DNA from: a virus
Taxonomy: Duplodnaviria; Heunggongvirae; Uroviricota; Caudoviricetes
Length of the DNA stretch: 64,000 bases
Strand: one strand, 5' to 3'
IMG/VR virus record: IMGVR_UViG_3300011972_000167
The position numbers were made by a program, and so were the translations under genes. Positions 2,963 to 28,059 of this stretch are shown piece after piece. The notes below the pieces were generated by a model. That model worked only from the letters and a program-made list of their open reading frames with translations. It made no database searches and was not told the DNA's origin. How positions within the stretch are numbered: position 1 is the first letter of the stretch; every line of letters starts with the position of its first letter.

Positions 2963-2991
2963 TTGAAATTTATTTTAATATGTGTTATAAT
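2963..2991 (+). promoter_or_regulatory. sigma-A-like promoter for tnpA (copy 1)
   Basis: TTGAAA - 17 nt - TATAAT about 25 nt upstream of the RBS GAGGTG and the ATG at 3016. Confidence 0.45.
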
Positions 2992-3015
2992 AACCCTTGA
3001 AAGTGAGGTGAAATT

Positions 3016-3630
3016 ATGGCACTGATGTCAATAGGAAAATTTGCTAAAGAAATAGGTTTAAGTGTTCAGCATTTAAGAAAGCTTCATGAAGATAATATTT
3101 TAGCTCCTGCTGTAATAACTAAAGGTGGAACTAGGTATTATTCAGATGAACAACTTTCAGAATACTTAAATAAAGATAACAAACCACAACAATTACCTAT
3201 TATACTGTATGCAAGGGTTTCCACTCGAAGTCAAAAAGATGATTTAGATGGACAGGTGGAAAATCTAAAATTGTATGCAATTTCAAAAGGCTATTCTTTT
3301 GAAATAATAACTGATATAGGTAGTGGTATCGATTATACTAAACATGGATTAAAGCAGTTAATTCAGAAAATAAACAATAAAGAGATATCTAAAATAGTAG
3401 TTCTTTATAAAGATAGGCTTATTAGATTTGGTTTTGAATTGATTGAATATCTTTGTGAACTTAATAATGTAGGTATAGAAATAATTGATAACACAACTAT
3501 ATCAAAAGAAACTGAGCTAACAAATGATTTAATTCAAATTATTACTGTATTTGCTAACAGATTGTATGGATCTAGGTCTAAAAAGACATTAAGATTAATA
3601 CAAGAGGTGAAATCAAATGGTAATCATTAA
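3016..3630 (+). CDS. tnpA: IS607-family TnpA: MerR-like HTH fused to serine recombinase (resolvase) catalytic domain
   Basis: N-terminal HTH (SIGKFAKEIGLSVQHLRKL). Resolvase motifs YARVSTRSQ (catalytic Ser), and GSGIDYTKHGL / LIRFGFELIEYLC, shared with the paralog at 34.8 kb. Overlaps downstream tnpB. Confidence 0.75.
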   Translation: MALMSIGKFAKEIGLSVQHLRKLHEDNILAPAVITKGGTRYYSDEQLSEYLNKDNKPQQLPIILYARVSTRSQKDDLDGQVENLKLYAISKGYSFEIITDIGSGIDYTKHGLKQLIQKINNKEISKIVVLYKDRLIRFGFELIEYLCELNNVGIEIIDNTTISKETELTNDLIQIITVFANRLYGSRSKKTLRLIQEVKSNGNH

Positions 3631-4735
3631 AGGATATAAAATTAGATTATTACCTACTTTAGAACAAGAAATACTTATAAAAAAATCAATAGATGTTTCA
3701 AGGTTTGTTTATAACTGGTGTCTAAATAAACAGCTTAGTTCTGATAAATTTATTAGAGATAACGAATTAAGAAAAGAATTAACTAAATTAAAACGAACAG
3801 ACAGTTACTATTGGTTAAATGAAGTAGGTTGTAATGTAATAAAACAATCAGCAAAAGATTTATGTAATACTTACAAGAAATTTTTTAATAAACTATCTAA
3901 TAAACCAAGGTTTAAGAAAAAGGGTGTTCATAATTCATTTTATGTTAATTATGAAACTATGAAAAAGACTAAGCATGGTGTTAGGTGTGAAAAAATAGGT
4001 GATATTAAAACATCTGAAAGATTGCCTAAACTTATACAAGATAAACATTATATGAATCCTCATATAGTTTTTGATGGAAAATATTACTACATAACTTTTA
4101 GTATAGAAATAAATATAGAACTAAAAGAAAATACATCAAAAATTATAGGCATAGATTTAGGAATAAAATCATTTGCAGTATGCTCAGATGGTACTTTTTA
4201 TAAAAATATAAATAAAACGCATACAGTAAAAAAGTTAAATAAAAAATTAAGAAGATTACAACGATGTGTTAGTAAAAAATACCTTAAGAATAAGATGGGT
4301 AATAAATTTATAAAAACAACGAATATTATAAAACTTGAACATAAAATAAAACTTATACATAGAAGAATAAAAAATATTCGTGAAAATTATATTCATCAAA
4401 TAACATCTCACTTGGTGAAAACCAAACCAAGCAGAATAGTTATAGAAGATTTGAATATAAAAGGAATGTTAAAAAACAAGCATTTATCAAAAGCTATTGC
4501 TGAACAGTGCTTTTATAAGTTTATAAGTGTTTTAGGATATAAATGTGATTGGAATAATATAGAACTTTTAAAGGCAGATAGATTTTATCCCTCAAGTAAA
4601 AAATGTTCTTGTTGTGGAAATATTAAAAAAGATTTGAAACTTAAAGACAGAATTTACAGATGTGGTTTTTGTAGTTTAATAATAGATAGAGACTTTAATG
4701 CAAGTCTAAATTTAGCAAATTATAAATTAGCATAA
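3617..4735 (+). CDS. tnpB: TnpB (IS605/IS607 OrfB family RuvC-like RNA-guided nuclease)
   Basis: N-terminal KIRLLPTLEQ...RFVYNWCLN. RuvC-I IGIDLGIKSFAVCSDG. RuvC-II IVIEDLNIKGMLKN. C4 zinc finger CSCCG...CGFC. RuvC-III DRDFNASLNLAN. Confidence 0.85.
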   Translation: MVIIKGYKIRLLPTLEQEILIKKSIDVSRFVYNWCLNKQLSSDKFIRDNELRKELTKLKRTDSYYWLNEVGCNVIKQSAKDLCNTYKKFFNKLSNKPRFKKKGVHNSFYVNYETMKKTKHGVRCEKIGDIKTSERLPKLIQDKHYMNPHIVFDGKYYYITFSIEINIELKENTSKIIGIDLGIKSFAVCSDGTFYKNINKTHTVKKLNKKLRRLQRCVSKKYLKNKMGNKFIKTTNIIKLEHKIKLIHRRIKNIRENYIHQITSHLVKTKPSRIVIEDLNIKGMLKNKHLSKAIAEQCFYKFISVLGYKCDWNNIELLKADRFYPSSKKCSCCGNIKKDLKLKDRIYRCGFCSLIIDRDFNASLNLANYKLA

Positions 4736-4885
4736 AGTTAAAATTAAAAACAATGCTAATATGTACCGTTCGATACACGGGAATTTAAGCCTTTGGAGAG
4801 TTATATCAAACTAAAGTAGCTTTTTAGCAAAATAGGACTCTGTGAACAAGGAAGTTTTAATCGTGAGATGAAACATAGTAAAAAT
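4736..4885 (+). ncRNA. Putative TnpB omega-RNA / right-end structured region of IS607 copy 1
   Basis: Directly 3' of tnpB. Sequence blocks are conserved with the equivalent position of copy 2 (36592-36735) even though the two proteins are only about 50% identical. Ends with ATGAAACATA at 4868-4877. Confidence 0.35.
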
Positions 4886-5077
4886 TGACATTGATTTATA
4901 TTTAAGTAAATTTTTCGTATCGGTTTAGATGATATAATAGAGAAAGCCATAGTTACAGAAGATAGTGGTAATGATATCAGAGAAACTGCTAAGAAAGTTA
5001 CTAAAGGCATAGTAACTGAAATAAGCGGAAAAGATAATAATGTTATTAAGCCTGTTATAAATAATGTTATAGGTTTT

Positions 5078-5812
5078 ATGTCTGCTGGAGGTGGGGCAGG
5101 GGCAAGTACTATAGTAGCTAATACAGCTAAATTAATAAAGAAAAAGGGTTTATCTGTAGCTATAGTGGATTTGAATATAGTTTATCCGAGTCAGCATTTA
5201 TATTTTTCCATACCACAGGAGTTGGGTAGAAATGATATCTATAGTTTAATGTCAGGTAAGTCAGAACTAGGAGCAAGTTTAGTATACTCTAGTGATATAG
5301 CTTTGTTATTAGCAAATAATCGTGGAATAGTTGATTATATAAATGGAGATGATAAATATTTTTCAGCTAACCTTGAAAAAGCAATAGATAATTTAAGTTA
5401 TCGTTTTGATGTAGTTTTGATTGATTGTCCTTTGGATGTTTCTAATAGCTATGTAAATGCATCCTTATACAAGATAGATACATTATATTTAGTTATAGAT
5501 GATGGTGTTCAATCAATTATAAATGTACCAAAGATAAGAAATGCTTTTGACAGATTCGGTATAGGTTTTGGAAAGTGTAAATTTATAATGAACAAGAGAA
5601 CCAGTAATTTTTATAATGAGAGCAATCTAAATAAGGCTGGTATTAAATTAATTGAGATTATACCTTTTGATTTAGGTATAATAACATCAGGATTAAGATG
5701 TGAATTATATGTAGATAAGGGAATTGGTGTAGACAAGACTAGTAAAGAAGTTGAGAAAGCTTTTAATAGTTTATGTGAAAAAATACTAAGTATAGGGGGA
5801 TATAAGAAGTAA
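5078..5812 (+). CDS. CpaE/TadZ-like MinD/ParA-fold ATPase (ATPase domain only; N-terminus uncertain)
   Basis: Deviant P-loop VIGFMSAGGGAGASTIVANTA straddling the annotated ATG. MinD-like LIDCPLD (Walker B-like). Position is immediately 5' of cpaF as in tad loci. In-frame ORF is open back to 4910 without a canonical start codon. Confidence 0.5.
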   Translation: MSAGGGAGASTIVANTAKLIKKKGLSVAIVDLNIVYPSQHLYFSIPQELGRNDIYSLMSGKSELGASLVYSSDIALLLANNRGIVDYINGDDKYFSANLEKAIDNLSYRFDVVLIDCPLDVSNSYVNASLYKIDTLYLVIDDGVQSIINVPKIRNAFDRFGIGFGKCKFIMNKRTSNFYNESNLNKAGIKLIEIIPFDLGIITSGLRCELYVDKGIGVDKTSKEVEKAFNSLCEKILSIGGYKK

Positions 5813-7306
5813 ATGAAACCTAGTGATTATTTAGAGTTATCCTCTAAAAGAGATGTTAAGAAGAACTTTATATCTGATAATAATGACCAGACTAAAAATA
5901 TAGATTTTGTAGTTAGCGAGTGTAGAAAGTTCCTCAACCTTAACGCCTATGAATACTCCAATAAAACTGGAGATGAAAAAAAGGCAATGCTACAAAACCT
6001 TATAAATAAATTTATAGAGAACATAAATTATAAGGTAAGTGGTTTTGTAACATCAGACGGAAAGTTAAATGTCAATGAGTTATTAAATAAATTATCCCAA
6101 GACATTACGGATTATGGTATTTTATCCGCTGCTATGTATGATGATGAAATATCAGAGATACAAATAAACGGCAAAGAGATTAAGGTAGAGAGAAGAGGAA
6201 GAATAGAAGATTACAGAGATAGTTCTGATAGAATTTTATCTTTCAGCTCTACAGAGCAACAGGATGTAGTATTTAAGCGTTTATTAGGAGATACAAGACT
6301 ATCACCTAAGGATGCAATTTCAAATGCAAGAACAGTTGAGGGTTATCGTATAGCCGCTGTTCATCATAGTGTTATAGCTATGGATACCTTGGTTTCTTCA
6401 AATAACGGTTATAATTATGCTGTTATTCGTAAGTTTAGAAAGCAGAAAATGCCAATACAGCAATTAGTTAAGTATGAAACTATGAGTGATAACATGGCAA
6501 AGTTTCTTGGAACTATGATAGAGGGCGGTTCTACTTTCTTAACAGTTGGACAAACTGCTTCAGGTAAGACCACAACCAATCAATGTATTTTGGATACAGT
6601 TCCAAGTGATTTAAGAACTATACTTATACAGAATCCATCAGAGATTGACCTTGCAAGAAGAGATAGTACAGGCAGAGTTACAAACAATGTTGTCCATTTT
6701 GAGGCAAGGAGCATAGAAAATCCTACTGAAGCAGACCCTACAATGGAGAACTTTATGAACCAGTCCTTGAGATTTTCTCCAACCTTTATATCCTTTGGTG
6801 AGTTAAGATTGGATTCAGAGTTTACTAGGGCTATGGCAGCGGCATTGGCTGGACACTCTTTTAATTGCACCTTCCATGCTGGTAGTAGTTATGGTGCTAT
6901 GCTAAGATATGCTACAGCTTATGAAACTGGTTCTGGAAGTAATAGAGAAACAGTTATGATAAACTTAACAAGCTATGTTAATTTTATTATAGTTCAAGAT
7001 ATAATGAGAGATGGCACTCGTAAGATACTTCAAATAACTGAAGTTTTAGGAACTAAGAAAGATGATAGGGCTGAACCAGACTTAAATGATTTATACATTT
7101 TTGATGTAGGAGAAACTGATTATGATGAGAATGGCAAAATAATTAAGATAAATGGTACTCATAAGAGAGTAGGAAAGTTATCAGATGCTACTGTTCGTAA
7201 GTTTAAGTTACATGGAGTTAATCCCGATAAATATTCTTTCTTGTTAGGTGATGTTACAGATGACGAAGTAGAAACTTATACGGGAGACTTTGAGTTTGGG
7301 AGGTAG
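5813..7306 (+). CDS. cpaF: CpaF/TadA-type secretion ATPase (VirB11/GspE superfamily)
   Basis: Walker A GQTASGKTT. Asp/His-box region ILIQNPSEID and FISFGELRLDSE (equivalent to RIIVGEVR). Start overlaps the upstream stop (TAAATG). Confidence 0.75.
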   Translation: MKPSDYLELSSKRDVKKNFISDNNDQTKNIDFVVSECRKFLNLNAYEYSNKTGDEKKAMLQNLINKFIENINYKVSGFVTSDGKLNVNELLNKLSQDITDYGILSAAMYDDEISEIQINGKEIKVERRGRIEDYRDSSDRILSFSSTEQQDVVFKRLLGDTRLSPKDAISNARTVEGYRIAAVHHSVIAMDTLVSSNNGYNYAVIRKFRKQKMPIQQLVKYETMSDNMAKFLGTMIEGGSTFLTVGQTASGKTTTNQCILDTVPSDLRTILIQNPSEIDLARRDSTGRVTNNVVHFEARSIENPTEADPTMENFMNQSLRFSPTFISFGELRLDSEFTRAMAAALAGHSFNCTFHAGSSYGAMLRYATAYETGSGSNRETVMINLTSYVNFIIVQDIMRDGTRKILQITEVLGTKKDDRAEPDLNDLYIFDVGETDYDENGKIIKINGTHKRVGKLSDATVRKFKLHGVNPDKYSFLLGDVTDDEVETYTGDFEFGR

Positions 7307-7313
7307 ATAGTTT

Positions 7314-8309
7314 ATGGGTTCAATAAATAAAGCTTTAACTACTACTAGCGGTGTAACAGTAAGTGCATTATTGATAATAGCTCTTGCGGCTTTGTTTTAT
7401 ATATTTTACATATTAAAGTTTCGACCTGGCGATTGGTTAACTGGTTTAGCTAAACTTATATTAAAGATTACTGGTAAGAATATAAATAAAGCAGAAAGAG
7501 ACTATGAAAGAAACCTTGAGATTGGAAGATATAAGCAAAAATCAGTAAGAGTAAAAGTCTATAAGTTTTTGAATGATTTAACTATAGACTTAGACCTTAA
7601 GGCATCTGGATATACTCCTTATACTTTATTATTTTTTATAGTTGCTGTTAGTGTTGTTATAGCTTTTATTGTAAGTAATATTGTATTTAGAAATTTGTGG
7701 TTATTTATTTTTGCTTTTCCTATTGTTTTTGCTGCTATAGCTTGTTTCTTATACACTAGGGCTAATATAGCACATGATAGCCGTATAGATGATGTTATAG
7801 CTTCTGAAAATATTATAAGTAACAATGTTAGTAAGGGAGTTGTAGTTTCTATAAGAATGAATTTAGATAGTTTTCCTATCAAATTACAGCCTGTTTTCAG
7901 AGAGTTTGTAGATAGTGTTGAAACAAGAAATACTCATGTTAGGACAGCTTTGCTTGAATTAGGAAGTAACCTAGGTTCTGTATCTGATGACTTTATTCAA
8001 AAGTGTATAACATTTGAATTAGAAGAGGAGCATGGTTTAGTAGGTATATTTAATGATGTTGTAGAAGTTAATAGCATTAAGAGTGAGTTTAGGATTTATA
8101 TGAAGCGTAAGTTTGAAGAGGTTATGTTTGAGTTTATTATGGGATTAGGAATGATATTCTTTTTCCTTGGTGGTATTATAGCCTTATATCCTATGCTACA
8201 GAAATTTTATTTTGTTAATATTTTCGGTCAGATATTGTTATTACTAGATGGGCTTTTAATAGTCGCCGAGTTTGTTTATATAACATATCTAAGAGCACAA
8301 GAGTTATAG
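7314..8309 (+). CDS. tadB: TadB-like polytopic inner-membrane platform protein (T2SS-F-like)
   Basis: 331 aa with TM helices at the N-terminus, middle and C-terminus. Position directly after cpaF and translationally coupled. Confidence 0.5.
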   Translation: MGSINKALTTTSGVTVSALLIIALAALFYIFYILKFRPGDWLTGLAKLILKITGKNINKAERDYERNLEIGRYKQKSVRVKVYKFLNDLTIDLDLKASGYTPYTLLFFIVAVSVVIAFIVSNIVFRNLWLFIFAFPIVFAAIACFLYTRANIAHDSRIDDVIASENIISNNVSKGVVVSIRMNLDSFPIKLQPVFREFVDSVETRNTHVRTALLELGSNLGSVSDDFIQKCITFELEEEHGLVGIFNDVVEVNSIKSEFRIYMKRKFEEVMFEFIMGLGMIFFFLGGIIALYPMLQKFYFVNIFGQILLLLDGLLIVAEFVYITYLRAQEL

Positions 8310-8313
8310 GAGG

Positions 8314-9387
8314 GTGTCAATGGTTTCAAATAATTTAATTATATTAGCCTCTGCTGTAGGTAATTATGGTATAAACAATAGTAATGACATTAATATAGGT
8401 GATAGTTTCAAGTATGAGTACTTCAATCCTATCACATTAAAGTTATTAAACAATTACGGATTTATAAAAATTCTTGTAGCTATAATACTTATAGTATTAG
8501 CCTTTCTTATAATAAAAAATATGATGGGAATACGAAGTATATTTACATCAAAGGCTGTCAGGACAGAGATAGACAACTATAATAACCTTAGAGATAGGGA
8601 TAGTAGAATACTCCATGCTAACAAGTTTATTAGGGGAATAACGGGGTTTATAACAAAAAAAGGTTTTAGAGTAAATCCAGCTTATAAAGAGTACTTTCAG
8701 TATAATTTAGATAGAGCAAATGTCAGGATACCTGGCGGAAGTAGGATATATACTCCTGATGAATTTAACAGCTTAAAAGTGTTGTTTATTTGTTTAGTAA
8801 TACTTATAAGTTTATTAGTTTCTTGGTTTATATCTCCATTCTTTGGTTTTATATTAGCTGTTGTAGTTGGTTCTGCTATAAATATACTTCCAATGATGAT
8901 TATAAGACGAATAGTAGCAGCTAAGGACAGTGAGATAAGAGAAGATTTTCCAGACTTGTATTTGATGATACATTATGAAATAATGAGCGGTGCAAAAACT
9001 CCATTAGCTAAGGCTTTTACTTCTTACAGAAGAGTTACAGACTCCATAGAAATGTTAAAGTTTGTAGATACATCTATAAATATGTTTGAAACTTATGGAG
9101 ATGAAGAGGCTGCCACTAGAATAGCTAAGATTTATAGAGAAATACCTGAAGTTACTAGGTTAATGCGTCTTATAAATCAGTTACATACTGGTGGAGATGT
9201 TAAAAAAGAGTTAAACGGATTTAGGGAACAGATAATAAAGGATAAAAAGTACAGATTAGAGGTTAAAATGAATAAGTTAATTATTAAGGCTAAGATGTCA
9301 TTTTATCTAAGCTATATTGTTTTAGCCCAAGCAATTATAAGTGCTATGGCTTTATTTTTCCCAGATTTGAATTTCTTTAGGCTATAA
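8314..9387 (+). CDS. tadC: TadC-like polytopic inner-membrane platform protein
   Basis: 357 aa with three hydrophobic blocks and a cytoplasmic domain between them. Paralogous architecture to the preceding gene, as in tadB/tadC pairs. Confidence 0.5.
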   Translation: MSMVSNNLIILASAVGNYGINNSNDINIGDSFKYEYFNPITLKLLNNYGFIKILVAIILIVLAFLIIKNMMGIRSIFTSKAVRTEIDNYNNLRDRDSRILHANKFIRGITGFITKKGFRVNPAYKEYFQYNLDRANVRIPGGSRIYTPDEFNSLKVLFICLVILISLLVSWFISPFFGFILAVVVGSAINILPMMIIRRIVAAKDSEIREDFPDLYLMIHYEIMSGAKTPLAKAFTSYRRVTDSIEMLKFVDTSINMFETYGDEEAATRIAKIYREIPEVTRLMRLINQLHTGGDVKKELNGFREQIIKDKKYRLEVKMNKLIIKAKMSFYLSYIVLAQAIISAMALFFPDLNFFRL

Positions 9388-9487
9388 AGCTATAAAACTA
9401 GAATTTAAGAACTGGTTTAAGTTTATTAGGTATAAGAGTAAATAAGATAAAATACTCTTGATACACAGTATATAGGAGGAAAATAAA

Positions 9488-9748
9488 TTGAAAAAGATAT
9501 TCATAGGGCTTATTACAGCGGCTGTAATGGTAACAATAGGTTACATATCACTAAGAATTATATTGCCAAATACTTATATGTCAATGACTAATGCTATTGA
9601 AAAAGGCATTAAGAGCGGTACAGGTATTGCATTTGACCTTAACGGAGATGGTCAGATTGGTACTGGAGCAATGCCAAATACTGGTGCTTTAGATAATAAG
9701 GCTAAACAAGGTGATAATACTGTTACAGGATTAGATGGTTTACATTAA
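9488..9748 (+). CDS. Small pilin-like / secreted protein (TTG start)
   Basis: 86 aa with an N-terminal hydrophobic helix ITAAVMVTIGYISLRIILP. RBS AGGAGG at 8-nt spacing. Followed by a strong terminator. Sits where flp lies in tad loci, but lacks a canonical G/XXXXEY motif. Confidence 0.35.
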   Translation: MKKIFIGLITAAVMVTIGYISLRIILPNTYMSMTNAIEKGIKSGTGIAFDLNGDGQIGTGAMPNTGALDNKAKQGDNTVTGLDGLH

Positions 9749-9813
9749 TTTTTAAGATGTAACCTATTAAATCAACTTAGGCTACAACCGATTGTTGTTA
9801 GTCTATATAAACT

Positions 9814-9848
9814 TAGGCTACAATACACCATTGTAGCCTATTTTAATT
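9814..9848 (+). terminator. Rho-independent terminator after the pilin-like gene
   Basis: TAGGCTACAAT-ACACC-ATTGTAGCCTA (11-bp perfect stem) followed by TTTTAATT. A second imperfect hairpin lies just upstream (9788-9810). Confidence 0.6.
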
Positions 9849-9874
9849 CTATTTAATATAGGAGGTTACGGATT

Positions 9875-10417
9875 TTGAGTGATGCATTGAGATTTATATT
9901 TAAGACATTTATAAAAATACCATTTATAATAATGATTTCTTATTTCCTAGTTAATTTACTTTTGTTTTCGTTGTATTATTTCAAGTTTACTGGTATAAGT
10001 TACAGTGTAATGAATACTGCGATGGAAAATAATTATATACCAGAAAATGAGTATGGAACTATAAAAAAGACTATAGATGACATAAAGAATAGTAGCGTAC
10101 TTATAAAGGATGCTGACATTGTAACTGACACTCCAAATAAAAGAAAACAATATGGAAGTAAGGTAAAAGTAGGTGTTAGATATACTTATAGATGGTTAAC
10201 ACCTTTAATGCCTTGGGATACAGGTCAAACTCCCTCTGATATAAGAGGTGGAACTAGTATAATTGATGATAGTACTGCCAGTGAGGGAAATTTATCTTCT
10301 ATAACTGCTGAGGAGGCAAGGAGAAGAATAGATGCCTTATCAGATAGGTCATTAAATTCACCAATAGAAATAGTTTATGAGGTGCCAGGATTGCAATACT
10401 ATCCTGATATGAATTAG
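9875..10417 (+). CDS. TadE-like pseudopilin / membrane-anchored protein (TTG start)
   Basis: N-terminal TM IPFIIMISYFLVNLLLFSLYYF and position after the pilin gene. RBS GGAGG. Confidence 0.35.
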   Translation: MSDALRFIFKTFIKIPFIIMISYFLVNLLLFSLYYFKFTGISYSVMNTAMENNYIPENEYGTIKKTIDDIKNSSVLIKDADIVTDTPNKRKQYGSKVKVGVRYTYRWLTPLMPWDTGQTPSDIRGGTSIIDDSTASEGNLSSITAEEARRRIDALSDRSLNSPIEIVYEVPGLQYYPDMN

Positions 10418-10434
10418 TTTATGAGGATACTTTA

Positions 10435-11436
10435 ATGGGTAGTGGTATAAAAAGTATATTTAAGGTTCTTATATTTTTTACTTTATTTGTTACAATAGGG
10501 ATGATTATTATTGAGGTATATAATTTGACTATAGCTAGTGAGTTACTAAAGTCTACGGCTCATACTACTTTAGAGAGGTCTTGTGATTATTTTGCTCAAG
10601 AGAGTTATAAAAATGGTAGTGGAAATGCATATCAGTTAAGGGGATATAATAGTGGTTTAGACACTTCCTTAAATGGACAATTTTATTATGGTTCTGACTC
10701 TCAAGTTTATGATAAATTGTATACAAATAGTGATGAATTTAAAACTTATGTTAACAGATTTAAGGATAAATATAGGAAACTTAAGGTATTAGGTAAAGGT
10801 TTAGGTTTAACTCATGATATTTTATTTGATGGTGAAGATGCCATAGGTTCTTATTACAGACAAGGCTTGGTAACTCCATTAAATATAGGTATAGCATACT
10901 TAGATAGGGGTACTGTTGAAAAAATATTCAAATGGGAGTTGGTTGCTATATTATCTTCTGGACAAGAGGATATGATAATTACGAATCCTGCTGATGGTAG
11001 TAACCCTTATGTTTTATATAAAGGGTTTAGAATTTATTATAACTCTATAAAGTTAGAGGATCCTTCTTATAAAGTCTACGATTTATTTAATAGTGATGAT
11101 AAGAAAAAATTTGAAGAATTAACTAACATAGAAGTTGATGATTATATGCTAAGGGCTAGGATAAATGAATCAGATGAGCGTAGATATATAGTTGTAGCTA
11201 ATATGAATTATAAAGTTCGTGTTGGATATGAGGGAATAACTCCAATAAGAAGGCTTTTTCAGTGGGTAGTTAACACGGGAGATGATGAAAGATATGATAT
11301 AAACAATCCAAAGTGGAGTGGGGATACTACTTTAAGTAGGGTAGGAGCAAGAAATGAGGACTTTTTTAGGTCAGGTTTAAGATATGACTCTTCTGTGGGA
11401 ATAGGAAATAAGATTATATACTATATAGTCAGATAG
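10435..11436 (+). CDS. TadE/TadG-like membrane-anchored protein
   Basis: N-terminal TM VLIFFTLFVTIGMIIIEVYNL followed by a large extracytoplasmic domain. Confidence 0.3.
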   Translation: MGSGIKSIFKVLIFFTLFVTIGMIIIEVYNLTIASELLKSTAHTTLERSCDYFAQESYKNGSGNAYQLRGYNSGLDTSLNGQFYYGSDSQVYDKLYTNSDEFKTYVNRFKDKYRKLKVLGKGLGLTHDILFDGEDAIGSYYRQGLVTPLNIGIAYLDRGTVEKIFKWELVAILSSGQEDMIITNPADGSNPYVLYKGFRIYYNSIKLEDPSYKVYDLFNSDDKKKFEELTNIEVDDYMLRARINESDERRYIVVANMNYKVRVGYEGITPIRRLFQWVVNTGDDERYDINNPKWSGDTTLSRVGARNEDFFRSGLRYDSSVGIGNKIIYYIVR

Positions 11437-11444
11437 GAGATAGG

Positions 11445-12080
11445 ATGTTTAGTTTATTTGGGAAAAAGAAAACAAAAGAGCCTGTAGAAGAACTTCCAAT
11501 AGTAGATAAGGCATTATTAATTTTAACAGATAACCCAAAGGCTGGTATGGTAGATTACTTTAAGTCTTTTGATATAAAGATTAAAGGTTTATATAAAAGT
11601 TTAGATGATTTAAGAACTGAGTTAATTTTATATAGTTCAGATATACCTACCAGATTGGTTATTGTAGACAGTGGAGTTGATAAGTTTAACTCTACTGGAA
11701 ACGGTGATAATAATTTATATGATATATTAGAGTTGGCAAGTAATAAAGAGTTTGATATTACTGTATTGACTTCTAATAAAGGTTTGGTAAAAAGTGTAAA
11801 GAGTATACTTAAGAAATTAGGTAAAGCAGTTAATGATAAAGCTGATTACTCGGAGTATGATAGTATAAATTCCATAATAGAAAAGTTAAGTTCTTATAGA
11901 GAACACTATATAGAGAATGGAGCAACAGATATAGTTTTAGAGGAGCCATTAAAATTTAAGGGTCAAGAGGTAGATATAAAGTATCAAACTGGGATAAAAT
12001 ACAATGATTTTGAAACTTTAGCAGGTATATCAGATGATACATTAGGAAATGGTTTAACGGCTTTTAAGGTTAAGATTTAA
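11445..12080 (+). CDS. Hypothetical cytoplasmic protein, last gene of the tad-like operon
   Basis: 211-aa ORF, translationally close to the upstream gene. Followed by a hairpin and T-run. Confidence 0.4.
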   Translation: MFSLFGKKKTKEPVEELPIVDKALLILTDNPKAGMVDYFKSFDIKIKGLYKSLDDLRTELILYSSDIPTRLVIVDSGVDKFNSTGNGDNNLYDILELASNKEFDITVLTSNKGLVKSVKSILKKLGKAVNDKADYSEYDSINSIIEKLSSYREHYIENGATDIVLEEPLKFKGQEVDIKYQTGIKYNDFETLAGISDDTLGNGLTAFKVKI

Positions 12081-12088
12081 TAATGCAT

Positions 12089-12140
12089 AAGAGATAATTT
12101 TAATTTACTTATTTTAGTGGTTAAAGTTATCTCTTTTTTG
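12089..12140 (+). terminator. Putative terminator (long-loop hairpin + T-run)
   Basis: AAGAGATAA ... TTATCTCTT followed by TTTTTG. The loop is about 29 nt, so stability is modest. Confidence 0.35.
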
Positions 12141-12255
12141 TTGTTAAAGCCTGTAAGTAATTAAAGTATAATTAAATGTTTGAATTAGAACTTTTATTGT
12201 TATATAGATATGAAAGTAAGTTCAGATATAGCATAAAAGCTAAGAAAGAGAGTTT

Positions 12256-13497
12256 ATGAGTTTAATTCAGGCATTTTTGATTGATAATTTTAATTTTAAG
12301 GAGGTAACTAATATAATGTTACATGTTTGTACGGACCAAGGTGCTTCATGCACTAGATATTCAGCAAATAACAGTAAGGTGTATAAGAACCCTAATAACT
12401 TTATTACTGTGGAACCCGATGAGGATATCAGATATATACCACATAGCGATGAGTTTGTTGATAACATGGACTTAACGATTACTAAAGATGGAGATAGTGA
12501 TTTCTTTCCTAAAAGGATACTTGGAGGAACTTTAGCGGATAGGTATTCAAGTTCATCTGTTAAGCCAAGCATGCTTTCAAGCAAGAGCAAGCAACCAGTT
12601 AATTACTATAGCATTATTTCATCAGTTGTGGACTCTATATTGCTTAAAGAGGGTTCATTAAACGGAGAAAATCCTGTAGAGGTAGCCTGCTATATCTGTT
12701 TACCACCAGTGGAAATTACGGGTAATAATGAGAACGAAGATTATGTAAAGGCACAACTTAAAGGAAAGTATACGGTTAAGTTAAACAAGATGGATAAAGA
12801 GATTACTTTTAATATAAGAGAGGTAAGTATTTATCCAGAGAGTGTAATGGCTGTTGTTGCCTTTTTGTTTAATCAAGATGCTACTCAGCGTACAGAGATG
12901 GCTAAGTATAATAAAGGAAATGTACTAAGCTTTGATATAGGTGCAAGTACCTCTGACTTGGTTATAATTAACGATAGAAAGTTTGTGGAGCATTCTGGAT
13001 ATACCTGTAAGCTTGGTGGAAATATTATAGATGACTTGCTTCGTAATGAAATTCGCAGAAAGTTAGGCGTAGAGGTTTCTAACGATGACATAGCCGAGGC
13101 AGTAAGAACAGGTAGACTTGCTTATGGTAGCTCTTATAAAGATGTAAGTGAAGAGTTAAAGAAGTGCAAAAAGCAGTTTGCAAAAATGCTTTTTGAGAAG
13201 ATTCAAAACTATTTTGCTACCAATGGAATGGGATTGCAGTCTATCAAGGCTATATTTATGAGTGGTGGCGGTTCAATGCCATCAAGTTACATAGATGAGT
13301 CTGGTAAAGAGATAGTAACATCTCCGTCTGTTGGTGAGTACATAGATGAGGAGATTAAGAAAGTGTGTGACAGCATAGATATGGTACTATCACCATCTGT
13401 AAATCCTAGAGAGTGCAATATAGTTGGGTTAATACTTAGTATGAATGTTCAGAGAAAGCAATCTCAAATTCAGAACAATAAAAGTAAAAAAGAGTAA
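12256..13497 (+). CDS. Actin-like segregation ATPase (ParM/Alp family)
   Basis: Phosphate-1 MLHVCTDQGASCTRY (DxGxxxxR). Phosphate-2 LSFDIGASTSDLVII. Adenosine/phosphate-3 motif AIFMSGGGSMPS. 413 aa. Confidence 0.55.
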   Translation: MSLIQAFLIDNFNFKEVTNIMLHVCTDQGASCTRYSANNSKVYKNPNNFITVEPDEDIRYIPHSDEFVDNMDLTITKDGDSDFFPKRILGGTLADRYSSSSVKPSMLSSKSKQPVNYYSIISSVVDSILLKEGSLNGENPVEVACYICLPPVEITGNNENEDYVKAQLKGKYTVKLNKMDKEITFNIREVSIYPESVMAVVAFLFNQDATQRTEMAKYNKGNVLSFDIGASTSDLVIINDRKFVEHSGYTCKLGGNIIDDLLRNEIRRKLGVEVSNDDIAEAVRTGRLAYGSSYKDVSEELKKCKKQFAKMLFEKIQNYFATNGMGLQSIKAIFMSGGGSMPSSYIDESGKEIVTSPSVGEYIDEEIKKVCDSIDMVLSPSVNPRECNIVGLILSMNVQRKQSQIQNNKSKKE

Positions 13498-13540
13498 GAA
13501 AGGAGAGGACTCTGATAGTTTATGAGTCCTTAAAGATAAA

Positions 13541-15685
13541 ATGCTAAAGACAGCTATATTGGTATGTAAGCAGTCTAAAATAAGATTAAAGCATACAAAA
13601 TCTTATAGGGCTATTACAGAGAAAGAGTTTTTAAGGTTTATGGAATATGATACTTCCATAAACCTTGGTATCATAGAGATAGATAAAGATGCTACTGATG
13701 AAGTTATTAGTAGCATAGTAAAATTAGTAGATTATTGTGAGTCCAATTTGAATAAAAGAGTTATACTAATGTCATATAAGAGTGATGTTAGTATGGATTA
13801 TGTTGCTTATAGTGTAACCGAGTTACAAGAATTGATAGAGGCTGAAACAGGCTATGATGTAAGTACTTATATAAAAGAAAATTTATTCGATGAACAGCAA
13901 GAAGTTCAGGTATCTCAAGTAGAGAATGGCTTATCCTCTATTGCTGAATTTGAGATACCTGATGAAGAAGAGGAAGAAGAAGAGAACATAGAGGTCATCA
14001 AGATTATCAAAGATATAGAAGAGCGTAATATAGAGAATGAAAAGATTAAAGACCTTGAGATGATAATTGATGACCTTAAAGAAAAATTAGATAAATCAGT
14101 AAGCGTTAATGCTGAATTAGAGAGTACAAGAGAAAACTTATTAAAATCAAAGAATGAAGCTGATAATGAAATAGTTAGATTAACTTCTGAATTAGAGTCT
14201 AACAAGCATAAGATAGCCGAGTTAGAAAGTAATAACTATGTTGGAGAGATTGAAAGGCTTGTTAAAGAATTAGATAGTTATAAAATAAAAGTATCAGCTT
14301 TAGATGAAATAGAAGATAAACTCAGGGAAATAAATAGTTTATGTGATGAAAAAGATAAGATTATTAGAGACCTTGAGAATAGTATAAAAGACATTGAAAA
14401 GAAAGATAGAAGAAATGAGATAGTTTTAGAATTAAATTCAAAAAGGGCAGATACTATAAGGTTCATAGATAAAATTTATGTAGACCTTAAAAATACCATA
14501 AATGTTCTTAAGACTAAAGATAGTGAATTACATGAGGCTTTAAGAGAAGTTAAAGAATTAACTGACGACTGTAATTCTCTTAAAGAAAGTTTGAATAGTG
14601 CAATCAGCAGAGAGAAAGAGTATGCAGATAAAGAGTATAAATATAAAGAAAACATAAGTTTATTAGAGTCTAACTTAGATAAATTAGGAGAGGATTACAG
14701 TAACTCTAACAGACTTTTGGAAACCTATAAATCTAAGGTATTAAGTGCTGAAGCTTCTATTGCTCAAAGTGATGTGATAAAAACTAAGTTAAGCATTACT
14801 GAAAAAGAGTTAAAAGCTAGAATTGCTGAAATTGCAGATAAGGACATTGAGATTAAAAGATTAAACTCCAGTGTTAATACTAAAGAAGTAATAACTGTTG
14901 GAGTTGATAAGGTATTCAGTTCTTTTGAATATAAGGGTACTGCTAAGCTAATAAATGTATTTGGCGGAGGCAGTTATGGCATAACAAGCATAGCTTACTC
15001 AATAGCTAATAGGTTAAAAGGCAAGGTATTGTTTTTAGATTTTGATTTATTCAATCCAAAGTCTGATAAATACACTAAGAAAAATCCAATGGTAAGTGTT
15101 GCAGGTGTACCTAACAATCTATATAGGACTGGTGTAGGTGTATTATACAGTTGTGGCATAGATAAGTTTATAAGTGAATATGATAAGCTTGTTATAAAAG
15201 TTCTGAAAATAAAGGAACTTGAGTTAAGTTGGATAAGCGGATTGTATTCAATATTAAAGTTAGAAAATTTAGATTATACATCTGAATTTTTTAATTATAT
15301 AGGCAGTTTATATGATTATATAATAATAGACTCTGGTAAGGTAGGGTATTCCAATATAAATGACAGTTTAATTAAGAGTTTATGTGAGGTTAGCTATAAG
15401 AATTTAGTAGTATCAAGTAATGATACAGTAAGTATAAGGGGAATTGGTTTAGCATTAAATAAAGTTAAGCTAGCTAATGTAGATTGGATATTGAATTTAA
15501 GTAACAATTCTATTATAAGTGATAAAGCTAAAAAGAGTATCGGAGACAGTTCATATTATATATTACCTTTCAGTAATTCTATCTTTGGTACTGACAAATT
15601 AATAATAGATGATAATAACATAGATGGAAGATTATCAGCTTATCTTAGTAAGTTTGGATTGGAGGTAAATAAAGTTGGATTATAA
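13541..15685 (+). CDS. Receiver-like N-domain / ~300-aa coiled coil / C-terminal MinD/ParA-fold domain with lysine-less P-loop
   Basis: N-terminus AILVCKQ...IIEID...VILMSYKSD (beta-alpha pattern). Residues about 130-450 are heptad-rich E/K/L coiled coil. C-terminus LINVFGGGSYGITSIAYSIANRLKGKVLFLDFD resembles the MinD/CpaE Walker A region but lacks the Lys. Confidence 0.4.
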   Translation: MLKTAILVCKQSKIRLKHTKSYRAITEKEFLRFMEYDTSINLGIIEIDKDATDEVISSIVKLVDYCESNLNKRVILMSYKSDVSMDYVAYSVTELQELIEAETGYDVSTYIKENLFDEQQEVQVSQVENGLSSIAEFEIPDEEEEEEENIEVIKIIKDIEERNIENEKIKDLEMIIDDLKEKLDKSVSVNAELESTRENLLKSKNEADNEIVRLTSELESNKHKIAELESNNYVGEIERLVKELDSYKIKVSALDEIEDKLREINSLCDEKDKIIRDLENSIKDIEKKDRRNEIVLELNSKRADTIRFIDKIYVDLKNTINVLKTKDSELHEALREVKELTDDCNSLKESLNSAISREKEYADKEYKYKENISLLESNLDKLGEDYSNSNRLLETYKSKVLSAEASIAQSDVIKTKLSITEKELKARIAEIADKDIEIKRLNSSVNTKEVITVGVDKVFSSFEYKGTAKLINVFGGGSYGITSIAYSIANRLKGKVLFLDFDLFNPKSDKYTKKNPMVSVAGVPNNLYRTGVGVLYSCGIDKFISEYDKLVIKVLKIKELELSWISGLYSILKLENLDYTSEFFNYIGSLYDYIIIDSGKVGYSNINDSLIKSLCEVSYKNLVVSSNDTVSIRGIGLALNKVKLANVDWILNLSNNSIISDKAKKSIGDSSYYILPFSNSIFGTDKLIIDDNNIDGRLSAYLSKFGLEVNKVGL

Positions 15686-16442
15686 AGTAAAATTAGGGGC
15701 TACTTTATCCTTTAATTTAGGACTTGAGAGGGATATGGTTGAGCAAATAAATAAGTTAAAGGCTAGGCATAAGCTTGGAGAGTTTATAAGTAATTCTCTT
15801 AGGATAGTATTTGAAAACCCTGAATTATTAGAAAAACAAGGAGTAAGCCTTGCTGAGTATGGATTAACTGATAATAGAAAGAAATTAAATGATGCTATTC
15901 GTACTGAAATAATCAGAATGAATAATAAAATTCAAAAGACATACAAAATGGCTTATGAAATGTATAGCTTAGCAAAGTTTAATAAGCAATTAAATTTGTA
16001 TGATTGTTCAAGGAACATACTCGCCAGTCAGTTTATACTAGCTAAACAAATAGAAGATTTAAGAAAATTATTAGGGGTCAGTAGTATAGAACAACCTGTA
16101 AATTTACATAAAGTAGATACCAGCATAGATGATATCCTAGAGTACATATTATTAACTCATTCAGAAATAGTAGACGAGTTAAAAGAAAGTTTAACTGGTA
16201 GTAATGATTACTTGAAAAAGTTAAATGACCTAAAAGATTTAGCAGACAAGCATATTACAAAAGAAGTTAAAACTATTGAACCTCAGCCTGATATTGAAGC
16301 AGAAGATGATGAAGATAATGATACTTCTGATATGACTCAAAATGATATAGTTGAAGATGAAAAAGAAGATGAAGCTACTGATTTTGAAATAAGTGATGAT
16401 GCAAATATGAATGATTTAGCTGATTTAATTAATTTGTTTTAA
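15675..16442 (+). CDS. Hypothetical protein with highly acidic C-terminus (TTG start)
   Basis: 255-aa ORF with RBS GGAGG and a C-terminal D/E-rich tail (EAEDDEDNDTSDM...). Confidence 0.4.
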   Translation: MDYKVKLGATLSFNLGLERDMVEQINKLKARHKLGEFISNSLRIVFENPELLEKQGVSLAEYGLTDNRKKLNDAIRTEIIRMNNKIQKTYKMAYEMYSLAKFNKQLNLYDCSRNILASQFILAKQIEDLRKLLGVSSIEQPVNLHKVDTSIDDILEYILLTHSEIVDELKESLTGSNDYLKKLNDLKDLADKHITKEVKTIEPQPDIEAEDDEDNDTSDMTQNDIVEDEKEDEATDFEISDDANMNDLADLINLF

Positions 16443-16457
16443 GTTGGAGTATAAAGC

Positions 16458-17339
16458 ATGGATGATAAATATAAAGACTTGCCTTTTATGTTAGATTATA
16501 GAGGGGCATATCTAGTAAAAGAAGATATACTAGAGTTATATAAAAAGCTTAGTAATGATGGTAAGATAGGATTAAAGAATTTTAGTAACTTAAAGCTAAG
16601 CTTATATAAAAAGAAATATATGATTAAAACTGGAAAGAGCTCAAGGTTAGCCACCAAAGAAGAAGTACAAAAAGCAGTTTATGGGGTATATTATGATAAA
16701 GAGAGCATTTTAAGTTTTTATACTACTAAATATATAGCTTTGATTTTGGATTATATAACTACTGGAAAATCCTATGAAACTTCCATAAATAAAAATAAAC
16801 TCATAGAAGTTTATGAGTATATGTTTACAGATAAGTTTATAAGTGATTTACATACTATAAAATCTTCTAATCAGCTTAAGTTTTATGAAAAAAATACGGA
16901 TACTAATAATTGTGAATTGATGGTTGATGCATTGAAAGTTATAAGAGAAGAGTTGGATCCTGATTTTGGTACTGACTATAGTAAGAAAGCTTTTAGTATA
17001 GCTAAATATGCTTTAAAAAATAAATCTTATATATTGTCAAAAAGTCAATTTTCTATTATAGAAATTGAGTATAAGAAAATAAAAAATAAGAATAATGGTA
17101 TAAGCTTAGATATTTTGGATAAAGCAAGAAAAATTAAGGCTGACATAACAATAAACAGCAGTTATTCTAATATGATATATGATATAGCTTGTCAGGCTAT
17201 TGAAAAAAATTATCTATCTGAAAAACAGAAGAAATTACTTTTAGAGTATAAAGAAGTTAAAAAAGCTGTTGAGCCTACTGTTGATAATACGCCTGATGAT
17301 GTACCTGATTTTGATTTAGGTAGTTTTGATTGGAATTAG
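16458..17339 (+). CDS. Hypothetical protein
   Basis: 293-aa ORF, co-oriented, with RBS-like GGAG upstream. Confidence 0.35.
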   Translation: MDDKYKDLPFMLDYRGAYLVKEDILELYKKLSNDGKIGLKNFSNLKLSLYKKKYMIKTGKSSRLATKEEVQKAVYGVYYDKESILSFYTTKYIALILDYITTGKSYETSINKNKLIEVYEYMFTDKFISDLHTIKSSNQLKFYEKNTDTNNCELMVDALKVIREELDPDFGTDYSKKAFSIAKYALKNKSYILSKSQFSIIEIEYKKIKNKNNGISLDILDKARKIKADITINSSYSNMIYDIACQAIEKNYLSEKQKKLLLEYKEVKKAVEPTVDNTPDDVPDFDLGSFDWN

Positions 17340-21558: not shown

Positions 21559-22905
21559 ATGCTGAGACAGAAATATACAACTGTTACTCAACTACATAAG
21601 ATTAATAACAAAGACATTATTGAGTATTTTGAAAATGCTTCTGTATATTTCTGCAAATTACAGAGAAAAGCATTCCATATATTCAAGAATGAAAGTATAA
21701 AAGGAAATAAAGTTGAATATAGCAAATTTAGACAAGTTTTTATGAAAGAACATAATATCAGCAAGAGAACCGCAGACTCTATATTAAAAGATGTTCAAGG
21801 AAAAGTGAAGGCGCTTACTGAATTAAAAAAATACGAAGTTTCCCAAAAGGAGCAGAAAATTAAAAAAATTAAAGAAGAAATTGAAAAACTCGACATTAAG
21901 ATTCTAGAGTTCCAAGAAAAAATGAAAAATAAAATAAAAGTTAATCATTTTAACTATTGGAACTTAAAAAAGTCAAGAGCATTTAAGAAAATGAAGCTGA
22001 ATAAACTTCAGATGAGACTTGAGCAGCTCAGGTGGGAAATAGAAACAGGGCATTATAAGTTATGTTTTGGAACTAAAAAACTTTTAAATTCTGATAAAGA
22101 AAAATTTATTTTACAGCGTGACAGTCAGATGGGATATATTGGGTGTCAAGAAGAAAAAGGAAGAAATAGTGTGTTTCAGTTGAGTTATAATAGTATAAAT
22201 AACCAGTTTCTCATTAAATTAAGGAAAGATTTTGGATTTGATACAGAAGAAAAGTATGTATTTGGAAAATGCTATTTTAATAATCATAAAAACAAACTGA
22301 TAGATGCATTGGAAAATAAAAATTCAACTCCATTGACATATTCAATAAGCAGAAAAAATAGAAGATATTATTTACATTGCACTTTTGAATATAGGATTGA
22401 AAGTAAAGATTTATTTTCAACAAGAAAGGATTACGGAACTATTGGAGTTGATTTTAATAAAGGGTTTTTGACGGTTTCTGAAATAGACAGGAATGGCAAT
22501 CTTGCTAAAACTGACACCCTTAATTATCGCTTTGGAAAAGGAAATAAAACACAATCAGATTTAGAAAATTGTATTTCCAAAATATTAAGAAAAGCTTTAG
22601 AGGTAGGAAAGGATGTGTGCCTTGAAGATTTGAACTTCAATAACACAAAAGCTAAAACAGTGAAAGGTAAAACTGACAAAGGTAAAAAATACAATGATAT
22701 GCTGCATAGTTTGGCATATTCTTTATACGACAAGTTAATAACTAATATTGCTTTTAGAAATAAAATAGGAATTATAAAAGTAAATCCAGCATGGACTAGC
22801 TGGATTGCTAAAAATAAATTTTGTGAAAGAATGAAGTTAAATATACATACAGGAGTAAGTTTTGTAATAGCAAGGCGTGGATTAGGAATTAGAGATATAA
22901 TATAA
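21559..22905 (+). CDS. TnpB-like (RuvC-fold) protein lacking the zinc finger and with a long non-TnpB N-terminal region
   Basis: RuvC-I-like TIGVDFNKGF. RuvC-II-like VCLEDLNFNN. NPAWTSW in place of the TSQ-CxxC region (no CxxC...CxxC). Terminal HTGVSFVIARRG aligns with the RuvC-III DRDFNASLNLAN stretch of the window's TnpBs, but with Gly at the Asp position. N-terminal 290 aa include a K/E coiled coil. Confidence 0.45.
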   Translation: MLRQKYTTVTQLHKINNKDIIEYFENASVYFCKLQRKAFHIFKNESIKGNKVEYSKFRQVFMKEHNISKRTADSILKDVQGKVKALTELKKYEVSQKEQKIKKIKEEIEKLDIKILEFQEKMKNKIKVNHFNYWNLKKSRAFKKMKLNKLQMRLEQLRWEIETGHYKLCFGTKKLLNSDKEKFILQRDSQMGYIGCQEEKGRNSVFQLSYNSINNQFLIKLRKDFGFDTEEKYVFGKCYFNNHKNKLIDALENKNSTPLTYSISRKNRRYYLHCTFEYRIESKDLFSTRKDYGTIGVDFNKGFLTVSEIDRNGNLAKTDTLNYRFGKGNKTQSDLENCISKILRKALEVGKDVCLEDLNFNNTKAKTVKGKTDKGKKYNDMLHSLAYSLYDKLITNIAFRNKIGIIKVNPAWTSWIAKNKFCERMKLNIHTGVSFVIARRGLGIRDII

Positions 22906-28009: not shown

Positions 28010-28059
28010 AATTGTAAGGCGTAATAATATAACTACCGCAACAAAGGAATCTAGATTAA

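Follow-up and report, generated by a model that had tools for sequence, protein, structure and literature searches.

What does an actin-like ATPase do on a very large and mostly unannotated element, and which proteins does it work with? The question is raised by a 64,000-nucleotide stretch of a Caudoviricetes record (IMG/VR record IMGVR_UViG_3300011972_000167; the whole stretch is referred to here as the window), in which an actin-like gene is followed by genes for a 714-residue coiled-coil protein and a 255-residue protein. The window represents 64 kb of an element of ~284 kb; an identical actin is present on a 283,723-bp Joint Genome Institute (JGI) contig, the contigs of its relatives are 200–516 kb long, and the actin module probably belongs to a giant plasmid- or phage-like element of about 284 kb and low copy number. 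Our preferred answer, to which we assign a probability of about one half, is that the genes constitute a three-protein variant of an actin-type (type II-like) partition or positioning module on this giant, probably low-copy element. We favor it because of the predicted actin fold, the segregation actins that are its structural neighbors, the conserved three-gene order, the separate transcription unit, the large size of the element, and a parallel in the Bacillus thuringiensis plasmid pXO16. The three genes are as follows (aa, amino acids; ORF, open reading frame):

12316–13497, + strand: predicted actin-like ATPase of the ParM/Alp type, 393 aa, with a revised start (the ORF as listed is 12256–13497)
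13541–15685, + strand: 714-aa partner protein (alignment of nine orthologues, profile searches, synteny)
15675–16442, + strand: 255-aa candidate adaptor, 'R' (alignments, conservation over 171 sequences, AlphaFold2 (AF2) monomer model)

The true actin gene is most likely 12316–13497, because all of the aligned homologues begin at the internal Met21 (ATG at 12316), a GGAGG is present at 12300–12304, 11 nt 5′ of this ATG, and the gene caller gives 393 aa for the actin in the closely related contig L007. A sequence-only reading of the window had proposed an actin-fold segregation ATPase of the ParM/Alp type in ORF 12256–13497 (+ strand) on the strength of three motifs (DQGASCTR, FDIGASTSD and GGGS), and all three are present exactly as it described. 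In alignments of 24–29 homologues the phosphate-1 Asp and Gly, the phosphate-2 D-x-G-x-x-T-x-D and the adenosine GGG are conserved, with D27, G29, D227, G229, T232, D234 and G337–G339 (ORF numbering) invariant or nearly so. A family search, which that reading had suggested as a check, places Pfam MreB-like_C above its cut-off (38.3 bits; cut-off 27.8) and both StbA_N (23.5 bits; cut-off 24.6; E 6e-5) and ALP_N (16.9 bits; cut-off 26.3; E 0.008) below theirs. With 30.7 bits, the NCBIfam ParM model PRK13917 falls far short of its cut-off of 417, and PRTRC-D, MamK and BeeR are likewise far under theirs; MreB-like_C is thus the only curated model that accepts the protein, with StbA_N, ALP_N and NCBIfam ParM all failing. 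PHROG 691, annotated as 'partition protein', matches at E 5e-23.

No solved structure was detectable for the actin by sequence search against the PDB, and its identity to solved members of the family is 11–17%. Structure prediction, the other check that had been suggested, gave a confident AF2 model (predicted local distance difference test (pLDDT) 90.3; predicted template modelling score (pTM) 0.87; built on 29 homologues), and the best Foldseek match to it in the PDB is Alp7A (query-normalised template modelling score (TMq) 0.70, E 1e-18), followed by pCBH ParM, pSK41 ParM, archaeal Ta0583, CorM, B. thuringiensis ParM, R1 ParM and Alp12. Ranks 1–24 are taken up by Alp7A, the ParMs, Ta0583, CorM and Alp12, and MamK and MreB rank lower. 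The sequence-only reading had named sugar kinases or Hsp70-like proteins as the best matches that would speak against it; among the 50 best PDB matches there is no sugar kinase, PilM or FtsA, and Hsp70-type proteins are represented by a single entry, a ClpB-DnaK complex at rank 46. Among viral models (BFVD) the top match is gp506 of Bacillus phage G (TMq 0.72, E 1e-23), itself annotated as 'partition protein', with Hsp70s far weaker. The motifs, the PHROG match and the Foldseek ranking of the AF2 model bear out the original assignment, and as modelled the protein is a genuine but very divergent ParM/Alp-type actin-fold ATPase with intact ATP-binding motifs. Identity as a PilM or FtsA was considered and rejected, as neither is among the 50 best PDB matches.

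The actin gene does not travel alone. The order actin, large coiled-coil protein and ~250-aa protein is kept in every relative locus that we fetched, from 80% down to 26% actin identity, and in every relative examined the large protein (510–896 aa) is encoded directly 3′ of the actin gene. The relative loci are:

L014: actin identity 80%; large protein 718 aa; next protein 277 aa
L001: actin identity 65%; large protein 720 aa; next protein 261 aa
L003: actin identity 41%; large protein 850 aa; next protein 261 aa
L006: actin identity 39%; large protein 791 aa; next protein 276 aa
L005: actin identity 38%; large protein 896 aa; next protein 242 aa
L013: actin identity 37%; large protein 885 aa; next protein 302 aa
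L012: actin identity 33%; large protein 892 aa, plus a 387-aa paralogue of its C-terminal domain; next protein 242 aa
L025: actin identity 33%; size of the large protein not listed; next protein found with a hidden Markov model (HMM) of the R family
L011: actin identity 26%; large protein 510 aa; next protein 190 aa

The additional paralogue in L012 (8447–9607) consists mainly of the degenerate ParA-like domain and is situated between the 892-aa protein and the adaptor-like gene. In the window, the genes 3′ of the actin gene are tightly packed or overlapping (13541–15685, 15675–16442 and 16458–17339), and beyond them come genes for a 5′–3′ exonuclease and a PolA fragment, with one for a clamp-loader subunit at a greater distance; in most of the relative loci there are likewise further genes after the ~250-aa protein and then a 5′–3′ exonuclease. 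A small hairpin lacking a T-run is present at 13505–13531 between the actin stop and the start of the 714-aa gene (−12.5 kcal/mol, z −2.5), and it might tune the relative expression of these two genes.

The 714-aa protein begins with an alpha/beta domain (aa 1–~112), continues through an acidic linker into a coiled coil of ~340 aa, and ends in a C-terminal domain of ~260 aa (aa ~455–714, nt ~14903–15682) that resembles ParA and MinD. In the alignment of nine orthologues the N-terminal ~110-aa alpha/beta-type domain has invariant S12, R23-A24 and E46, the acidic linker is followed by a coiled coil of variable length (300–450 aa), and the C-terminal ~260 aa carry the motifs V-F-G-x-G-S-Y-G-x-T-T and Y-D-Y-I-V-x-D-x-G. 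The gene had been described previously as encoding a coiled-coil/MinD-like protein, and the coiled coil is upheld, the middle of the protein matching coiled-coil families only, while the matches to ParA, Soj and MinD are weak but consistent. A profile of the C-terminal domain searched against the PDB finds Soj (0.004), VpsO, MinD (0.01) and ParA (0.02–0.03), the P-loop and Walker B strand being the parts that align; Pfam AAA_31 matches six of the nine orthologues (best 6e-4) and CbiA three, all under the cut-offs, and an hhalign comparison of the domain with the TadZ-like protein encoded on the same element (see below) is not significant. A ParA/MinD fold for this domain is therefore a probable but weak assignment. 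The P-loop is degenerate, reading GGGSYGITS with no Lys, and the Walker-B-like strand reads YDYIIIDSG; G-x-G-S-Y-G-x-T is present in all orthologues and does not fit the deviant Walker A pattern KGGxGK[ST], as both lysines are gone. The domain is thus probably not an ATPase, and because the P-loop lysines are absent we favor a role for the protein as a non-catalytic scaffold. The N-terminal domain has no receiver-domain match and no other informative match in the profile searches.

The gene for the 255-aa protein has a TTG start and shares its first 11 nt with the end of the 714-aa gene, an arrangement that, like close spacing, favors co-translation and would indicate that the two genes are translationally coupled. 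The protein has a conserved N-terminal segment of 55 aa, a coiled-coil hairpin (aa ~68–133), an acidic disordered linker (aa ~197–243) and a conserved C-terminal peptide. The R family to which it belongs comprises 283 clusters at 50% identity in a library of 1.84 billion proteins, nearly all of them of 240–300 aa. Over 171 sequences the first 50 residues are strongly conserved (x-Y-x-I-[RK]-L-G-S-T-L-S-F-D-E-E-K-E-K-D-I-I...L...H-K-L-G-E-F-I-S-N-L-I-R-I-A-F-E-N-P-E), as is the C-terminal peptide (I/V)(I/V)-D-F ... D-A-D-L-x-A-L-x-N-F-F-G, which is predicted to be helical. The highly conserved N-terminal pattern I-R/K-L-G-S-T-L-S-F ... H-K-L-G-E-F-I-S-N-L-I-R is compatible with a ribbon-helix-helix, the profile of the central helical hairpin matches GCN4-type coiled coils, and in the AF2 monomer residues 197–243 are disordered and followed by a C-terminal helix (246–252). 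The sequence-only reading had seen no ParR-like adaptor, and here it has to be amended: the second gene downstream (15675–16442), coupled to the 714-aa gene and co-conserved with the actin gene, has an adaptor-like layout. This protein, two genes downstream of the actin, is likely to be the adaptor because its predicted layout is that of a head that binds DNA or cargo, an element for dimerization, a flexible tether and a short helix for binding a partner.

A cultured parallel is found in B. thuringiensis. The best plasmid matches to the actin, which are 31% identical across 61% of its length (E 3e-21), are ~349.2–350.1-kb B. thuringiensis records, including pBTHD789-1 (strain HD-789). This plasmid is pXO16 of B. 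thuringiensis sv. israelensis, which is conjugative, of low copy number and 350 kb in size, with its coding sequences in one orientation; it has been suspected to be phage-like, and no plaques were obtained (PMC6199540). The pXO16-type locus (L040; NZ_CP045024.1 240870–248464) encodes, in order, a DHH protein, ParM/StbA (WP_000409536, 429 aa), and proteins of 583, 269 and 691 aa. The 583-aa protein is built like the 714-aa protein, with alpha/beta domains at both termini and, between them, an acidic linker and then a coiled coil, and the 269-aa protein resembles the 255-aa protein in having an acidic linker and a C-terminal ...DEDVLAGVGDAMSAIEGLGIEL tail. Like the window's element, pXO16 is a giant, mostly unannotated replicon with its genes in one orientation and a DHH gene upstream of the actin gene. 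Besides the homologous actin, the parallel is one of predicted architecture and gene order; the succession of DHH protein, actin, coiled-coil protein, acidic-tail protein and large protein is common to pXO16 and the metagenomic family, and it suggests that this cultured plasmid is distantly related to these giant elements. In the searchable literature we found no paper on the pXO16 module, and none on an actin-type system with such a coiled-coil partner.

The region upstream of the actin gene was considered both as a boundary of transcription and as a possible site for a centromere, and it contains the following features:

1464–12080, + strand: Tad/Flp-pilus-like locus (context only; Pfam, NCBIfam, synteny)
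12089–12139, + strand: intrinsic terminator, a long hairpin and T-run at the end of the Tad-like operon (inverted repeat I1; RNA fold)
12213–12255, + strand: imperfect direct repeat of 11 nt in two copies, AAAGTAAGTTC and AAAGAGAGTTT, spaced by 32 bp within the promoter/leader; possible operator on weak evidence

The hairpin of the terminator (12089–12135) has a predicted energy of −20.3 kcal/mol (z −6.4), none of 200 shuffles is equally stable, and it is kept in relatives. As this strong predicted terminator precedes it, the actin gene opens a new transcription unit and heads a unit of its own, apart from the upstream pilus-like operon. The sequence-only reading had noted the lack of obvious repeats in 12141–12255, and this is correct in that the only one we find is a chance-level pair of 11-nt copies at 12213–12223 and 12245–12255. 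Just 3′ of a −10-like TATAGA there is a block with AAGTAAGTT that does not vary among four aligned relatives, and the second repeat copy, 31–32 bp further on, is intact in L014, L001 and L015; L003 also has a pair spaced by 31 bp, but of different sequence, and five other clades are without such an upstream pair. Over the whole window the 11-nt motif shows no enrichment (106 found, 99 expected), comparable repeat pairs turn up in 38–57% of shuffles, and the two-copy repeat, the sole centromere candidate beside the operon, is a weak one and an operator at best. The arrangement is unconventional, as had been proposed, in that there are no adjacent parC-like repeats and a large coiled-coil/ParA-like protein, instead of a small ParR, follows the actin.

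The locus on the other side of the terminator includes a weak CpaB-like gene (0.0086), an IS607-type insertion with a RAGATH-18 RNA, a ParA/MinD/TadZ-like gene (ORF 5078–5812, with MinD, MipZ and AAA_31 matches), a TadA/CpaF-type ATPase (T2SSE 1e-18; NCBIfam TadA-family 3e-22 and FlaI 6e-26, both below their equivalog cut-offs), two polytopic membrane proteins, an 86-aa pilin-like ORF, and three more genes; putative pseudopilins are also among its products. The combination by which Tad loci are recognized, a TadA/CpaF-type ATPase with a neighboring TadZ/CpaE-like ParA, is present; the candidates for TadB/TadC, Flp pilin and pseudopilins are ORFs of fitting size, order and hydrophobicity with no Pfam, PHROG or NCBIfam match. 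The TadZ-like gene has 244 aa here compared to 294–300 aa in relatives, with the first insertion (3016–4853) lying just 5′ of it, and it may be truncated. The DHH-family ORF at 140–1375 has 411 aa from a GTG start compared to 494–536 aa in relatives (523 aa in L007), which may reflect a wrongly assigned start or a change in the gene at the edge of the window.

The Tad-like locus is directly 5′ of the actin gene in all of the metagenomic relatives, which raises the question of whether the actin is instead a PilM/FtsA-like platform and the 714-aa protein an elongated TadZ/CpaE-like localizer, both of them cytoplasmic parts of the neighboring Tad/Flp-like pilus or transfer machine, with the module positioning the machine rather than DNA. 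TadZ/CpaE proteins of Tad systems combine an atypical receiver domain with an atypical ParA/MinD ATPase, and the 714-aa protein recalls them in its domain order (an N-terminal alpha/beta domain and a C-terminal ParA-like domain), its non-canonical P-loop and its proximity to a Tad-like locus. It differs from them, however, in the inserted ~340-aa coiled coil, the loss of both Walker A lysines, and the location of its gene in the actin operon rather than in a pilus operon, and its N-terminal domain lacks the receiver-domain match that this explanation would lead one to expect. There are weak PilM_2 matches of one actin homologue and of the pXO16 actin, but the nearest structures are segregation actins, MamK and MreB rather than PilM or FtsA. 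A distant 145-kb Bacillus plasmid carries an actin gene 3 kb from a type II secretion system/type IV pilus (T2SS/T4P) ATPase, the actin being followed there by a 221-aa protein with a basic tail. In the window the strong terminator separates the two units, and the pilus-like locus already has its own ParA-like gene in the TadZ position. The position directly 5′ of the actin gene is also not occupied by a Tad-like locus in pXO16, where DHH is directly ahead of the actin module and no Tad genes are annotated within about 20 kb on either side; in the window family DHH is just ahead of the Tad-like locus, so that by comparison with pXO16 the pilus locus seems to have been inserted between DHH and the actin genes. 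Since the pXO16 module follows DHH without a pilus locus, the module appears to be independent of the pilus genes, and we consider a role in positioning a pilus-like machine to be quite improbable.

A partition module, our preferred reading, can be compared with several well-known systems. With Alp7A/Alp7R/alp7C (B. subtilis pLS20) and the ParM/ParR/parC systems (R1, pSK41, pCBH and B. thuringiensis pBMB67) the window shares the actin fold and motifs, and it is like the type II systems in that the actin gene is the first in its operon, on a large extrachromosomal element with a low-GC Gram-positive-type genome; one of the proteins encoded downstream is like ParR in its acidic tail and conserved C-terminal peptide. 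There are also departures. The actin has less than 20% identity to any solved actin, the 714-aa coiled-coil/ParA-like protein sits between the motor and the putative adaptor, the putative adaptor is about twice the usual size and has an internal coiled coil, and there is no iteron-type parC upstream. The type III TubZ/TubR/TubY systems of Bacillus and Clostridium plasmids and phages have a filament, a DNA-binding adaptor and a third, coiled-coil modulator or anchor, TubY (PMC7762940). These differ in that the motor is tubulin-like and TubY has no ParA-like domain, and the likeness is one of composition. A more far-reaching proposal is that the module represents an undescribed class of partition machine, a type I/II hybrid in which an actin filament is combined with a giant coiled-coil protein that has a dead ParA-like domain and serves as a kinetochore-like tether or polar anchor, and with a long adaptor; on this reading the machine is conserved over hundreds of lineages of uncharacterized 200–500-kb elements from gut, rumen and oral bacteria. 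We regard this as possible but offer it only tentatively.

The nature of the element bears on what the module moves. The window has a G+C content of ~29%, nearly all of its genes are on the + strand, and the GC skew is positive throughout. Twelve relatives are entered in IMG/VR as viral genomes of 46–295 kb, nine of them being of 200–295 kb. It is therefore conceivable that the same actin machinery serves a phage-like replication cycle instead of vertical inheritance, moving or organizing replicating DNA of the element in the course of lytic or transfer-associated replication, with its partners acting as tether and regulator. Besides the viral entries of 200–295 kb, this would fit the orientation of all genes in one direction (as for the 'phage-like' pXO16), the position of the module at the head of a cluster of replication genes (5′–3′ exonuclease, PolA and clamp-loader subunit), and the closest viral structure, which is the actin of a jumbo Bacillus phage. 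Parallels are AlpC/AlpA of Corynebacterium prophage CGP3 and PhuZ of the jumbo phages. Phage G itself (498 kb) has a canonical pair, the actin gp506 and the overlapping 129-aa gp505, with no coiled-coil/ParA-like partner. However, no cultured phage has a relative of the window actin at E ≤ 1e-5. Family searches found no capsid, portal, terminase or tail family among the window proteins, including those of 880–1673 aa; the 1673-aa protein has no cultured-phage match, and those of the TadA-like ATPase are distant only. The cultured carrier of a related module, pXO16, is a stably inherited low-copy plasmid from which no plaques were obtained. A role in a phage cycle thus seems rather unlikely.

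One pair of short relative contigs is assigned to a Lachnospiraceae metagenome-assembled genome. A plasmid search with the TadA-like ATPase gave no pointer to a host. The Inocle elements of oral Streptococcus (PMC12340149) are like the window's element in size, richness in insertion sequences (IS) and low fraction of annotated genes; the Inocle marker InoC (PF13814) was not found on a near-identical contig in the 10 kb that precede the window there, and identity with Inocles is not established.

If there is no centromere beside the operon, could there be one elsewhere in the window? The sequence-only reading had pointed to a large repeat field at 28–30 kb and to the protein encoded at 30479, and had proposed that this protein forms a segregation system with the actin and the 714-aa protein, with the field as a remote centromere. 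The field is real, strongly non-random, and the only large repeat cluster in the window, but we describe it differently:

28010–30478, + strand: TIGR array of at least 24 chained 39–40-nt units with 34 edge repeats; not part of the actin system
30479–31459, + strand: Tas gene, 326 aa (NCBIfam NF052498, above cut-off); not part of the actin system

Within the field AGTGAATTA has 17 exact and 34 near-exact copies, all on the + strand (20 exact copies in the whole window, 2 expected), and there are 34 copies at ≤1 mismatch within 28010–30478, a 2.4-kb stretch without ORFs. The unit of 39–40 nt, AGTGAATTAaCTA / 7–8 variable nt / aaGWAACCTA / 9 variable nt, consists of a 12–13-nt edge repeat, a 7–8-nt spacer, a 10-nt loop repeat and a 9-nt spacer, and the array is directly 5′ of the Tas gene and on its strand. 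ORF 30479 matches NF052498 (TIGR-Tas system RNA-guided endonuclease) with 123.4 bits (cut-off 100; E 1.3e-35) over model positions 2–215 of 215. In TIGR-Tas systems, whose Tas proteins have a Nop domain, the array gives rise to ~36-nt tigRNAs as guides for the targeting of DNA. TIGR arrays have two alternating 8–12-nt repeats and ~9-nt spacers beside a tas gene, with 5–15 units being typical (PMC12045711). Array and Tas gene are kept together in relatives, with the Tas protein 87% identical and the product of a neighboring gene 69%; the array falls into several sub-arrays, and relatives L026–L033 have retained it. From its unit structure and its neighbor, the field at 28–30.4 kb is an RNA-guide (TIGR) array and not a centromere, and the 2.4-kb 'repeat field' is reclassified as a TIGR array on the same element that, at ≥24 units compared to the typical 5–15, is unusually long. 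A centromere or iteron origin was rejected on the same grounds, and a skew-switch origin was rejected because the GC skew is positive on both sides. In none of the relatives does such a field lie less than 10 kb from the actin gene, and we find a segregation system built from the actin, the 714-aa protein, the 30479 protein and this remote field scarcely credible.

Several observations count against a three-protein partition module and keep our confidence in it at the level stated. Repeat finding, a motif-enrichment test and a shuffle control revealed no parC-like or iteron array beside the operon (upstream region 12081–12315). The AF2 monomer of the 255-aa protein is poor (pLDDT 55.8), with residues 1–13 unstructured and one long helix, and neither full-length nor N-terminal profiles of this protein found a ribbon-helix-helix match in the PDB or Pfam, giving coiled-coil or chance matches only. 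The scores that link the C-terminus of the 714-aa protein to ParA are weak (E 0.004–0.03). The pXO16 583- and 269-aa proteins are not detectably homologous to the window partners (hhalign 0.5% and 7%), and the 171-sequence HMM missed the 269-aa protein. A conventional par locus may be present outside the 64-kb window, the element being ~284 kb, and the element may be either a plasmid or a phage, as the relatives in IMG/VR are entered as viral, yet no phage structural gene was detected in the window.

If the module is nonetheless a partition system, a plausible course of events can be outlined. The actin would polymerize into ATP-dependent filaments. The 255-aa protein would act as the ParR-like adaptor, dimerizing through its coiled coil and binding DNA of the element through its N-terminal block, and its C-terminal amphipathic peptide may insert into the actin, by analogy with the ParR C-terminus and ParM. 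The 714-aa protein would be a non-catalytic scaffold that dimerizes through its dead ParA-like domain and its coiled coil, and it may anchor, bundle or regulate the filaments or the partition complex, with TubY as a comparable third protein.

Other features of the window are noted briefly. There are three insertions of the IS200/IS605 or IS607 type with guide RNAs. The first, at 3016–4853, has a serine resolvase and TnpB followed by a RAGATH-18 RNA at 4790–4853; another, at 34745–36715, has a second TnpB and a RAGATH-18 RNA at 36642–36715; and the one at 21559–23114 has a 448-aa ORF followed by an IS605-orfB-I RNA at 22915–23114. The 1273-, 880- and 1673-aa proteins of the window have no family in Pfam or PHROGs. 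The products of 27005–28009 (334 aa) and 54231–56873 (880 aa) have weak matches to choline-binding or cell-wall-binding repeats, and a host with a Gram-positive cell wall is likely.

The inheritance of very large low-copy elements (giant plasmids, phage-plasmids and jumbo phages) is little understood, and most of their genes are unannotated; within a large and diverse element family, the actin module is among the few blocks whose function can be interpreted. It departs from the textbook two-protein actin system by the addition of a conserved coiled-coil protein with a degenerate ParA-like domain. The availability of pXO16, a cultivable plasmid with a homologous actin and similarly built partners, makes the hypothesis open to genetics and microscopy. 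If it is true, actin-type segregation would have a third protein component, parallel to TubY in the tubulin-type systems.

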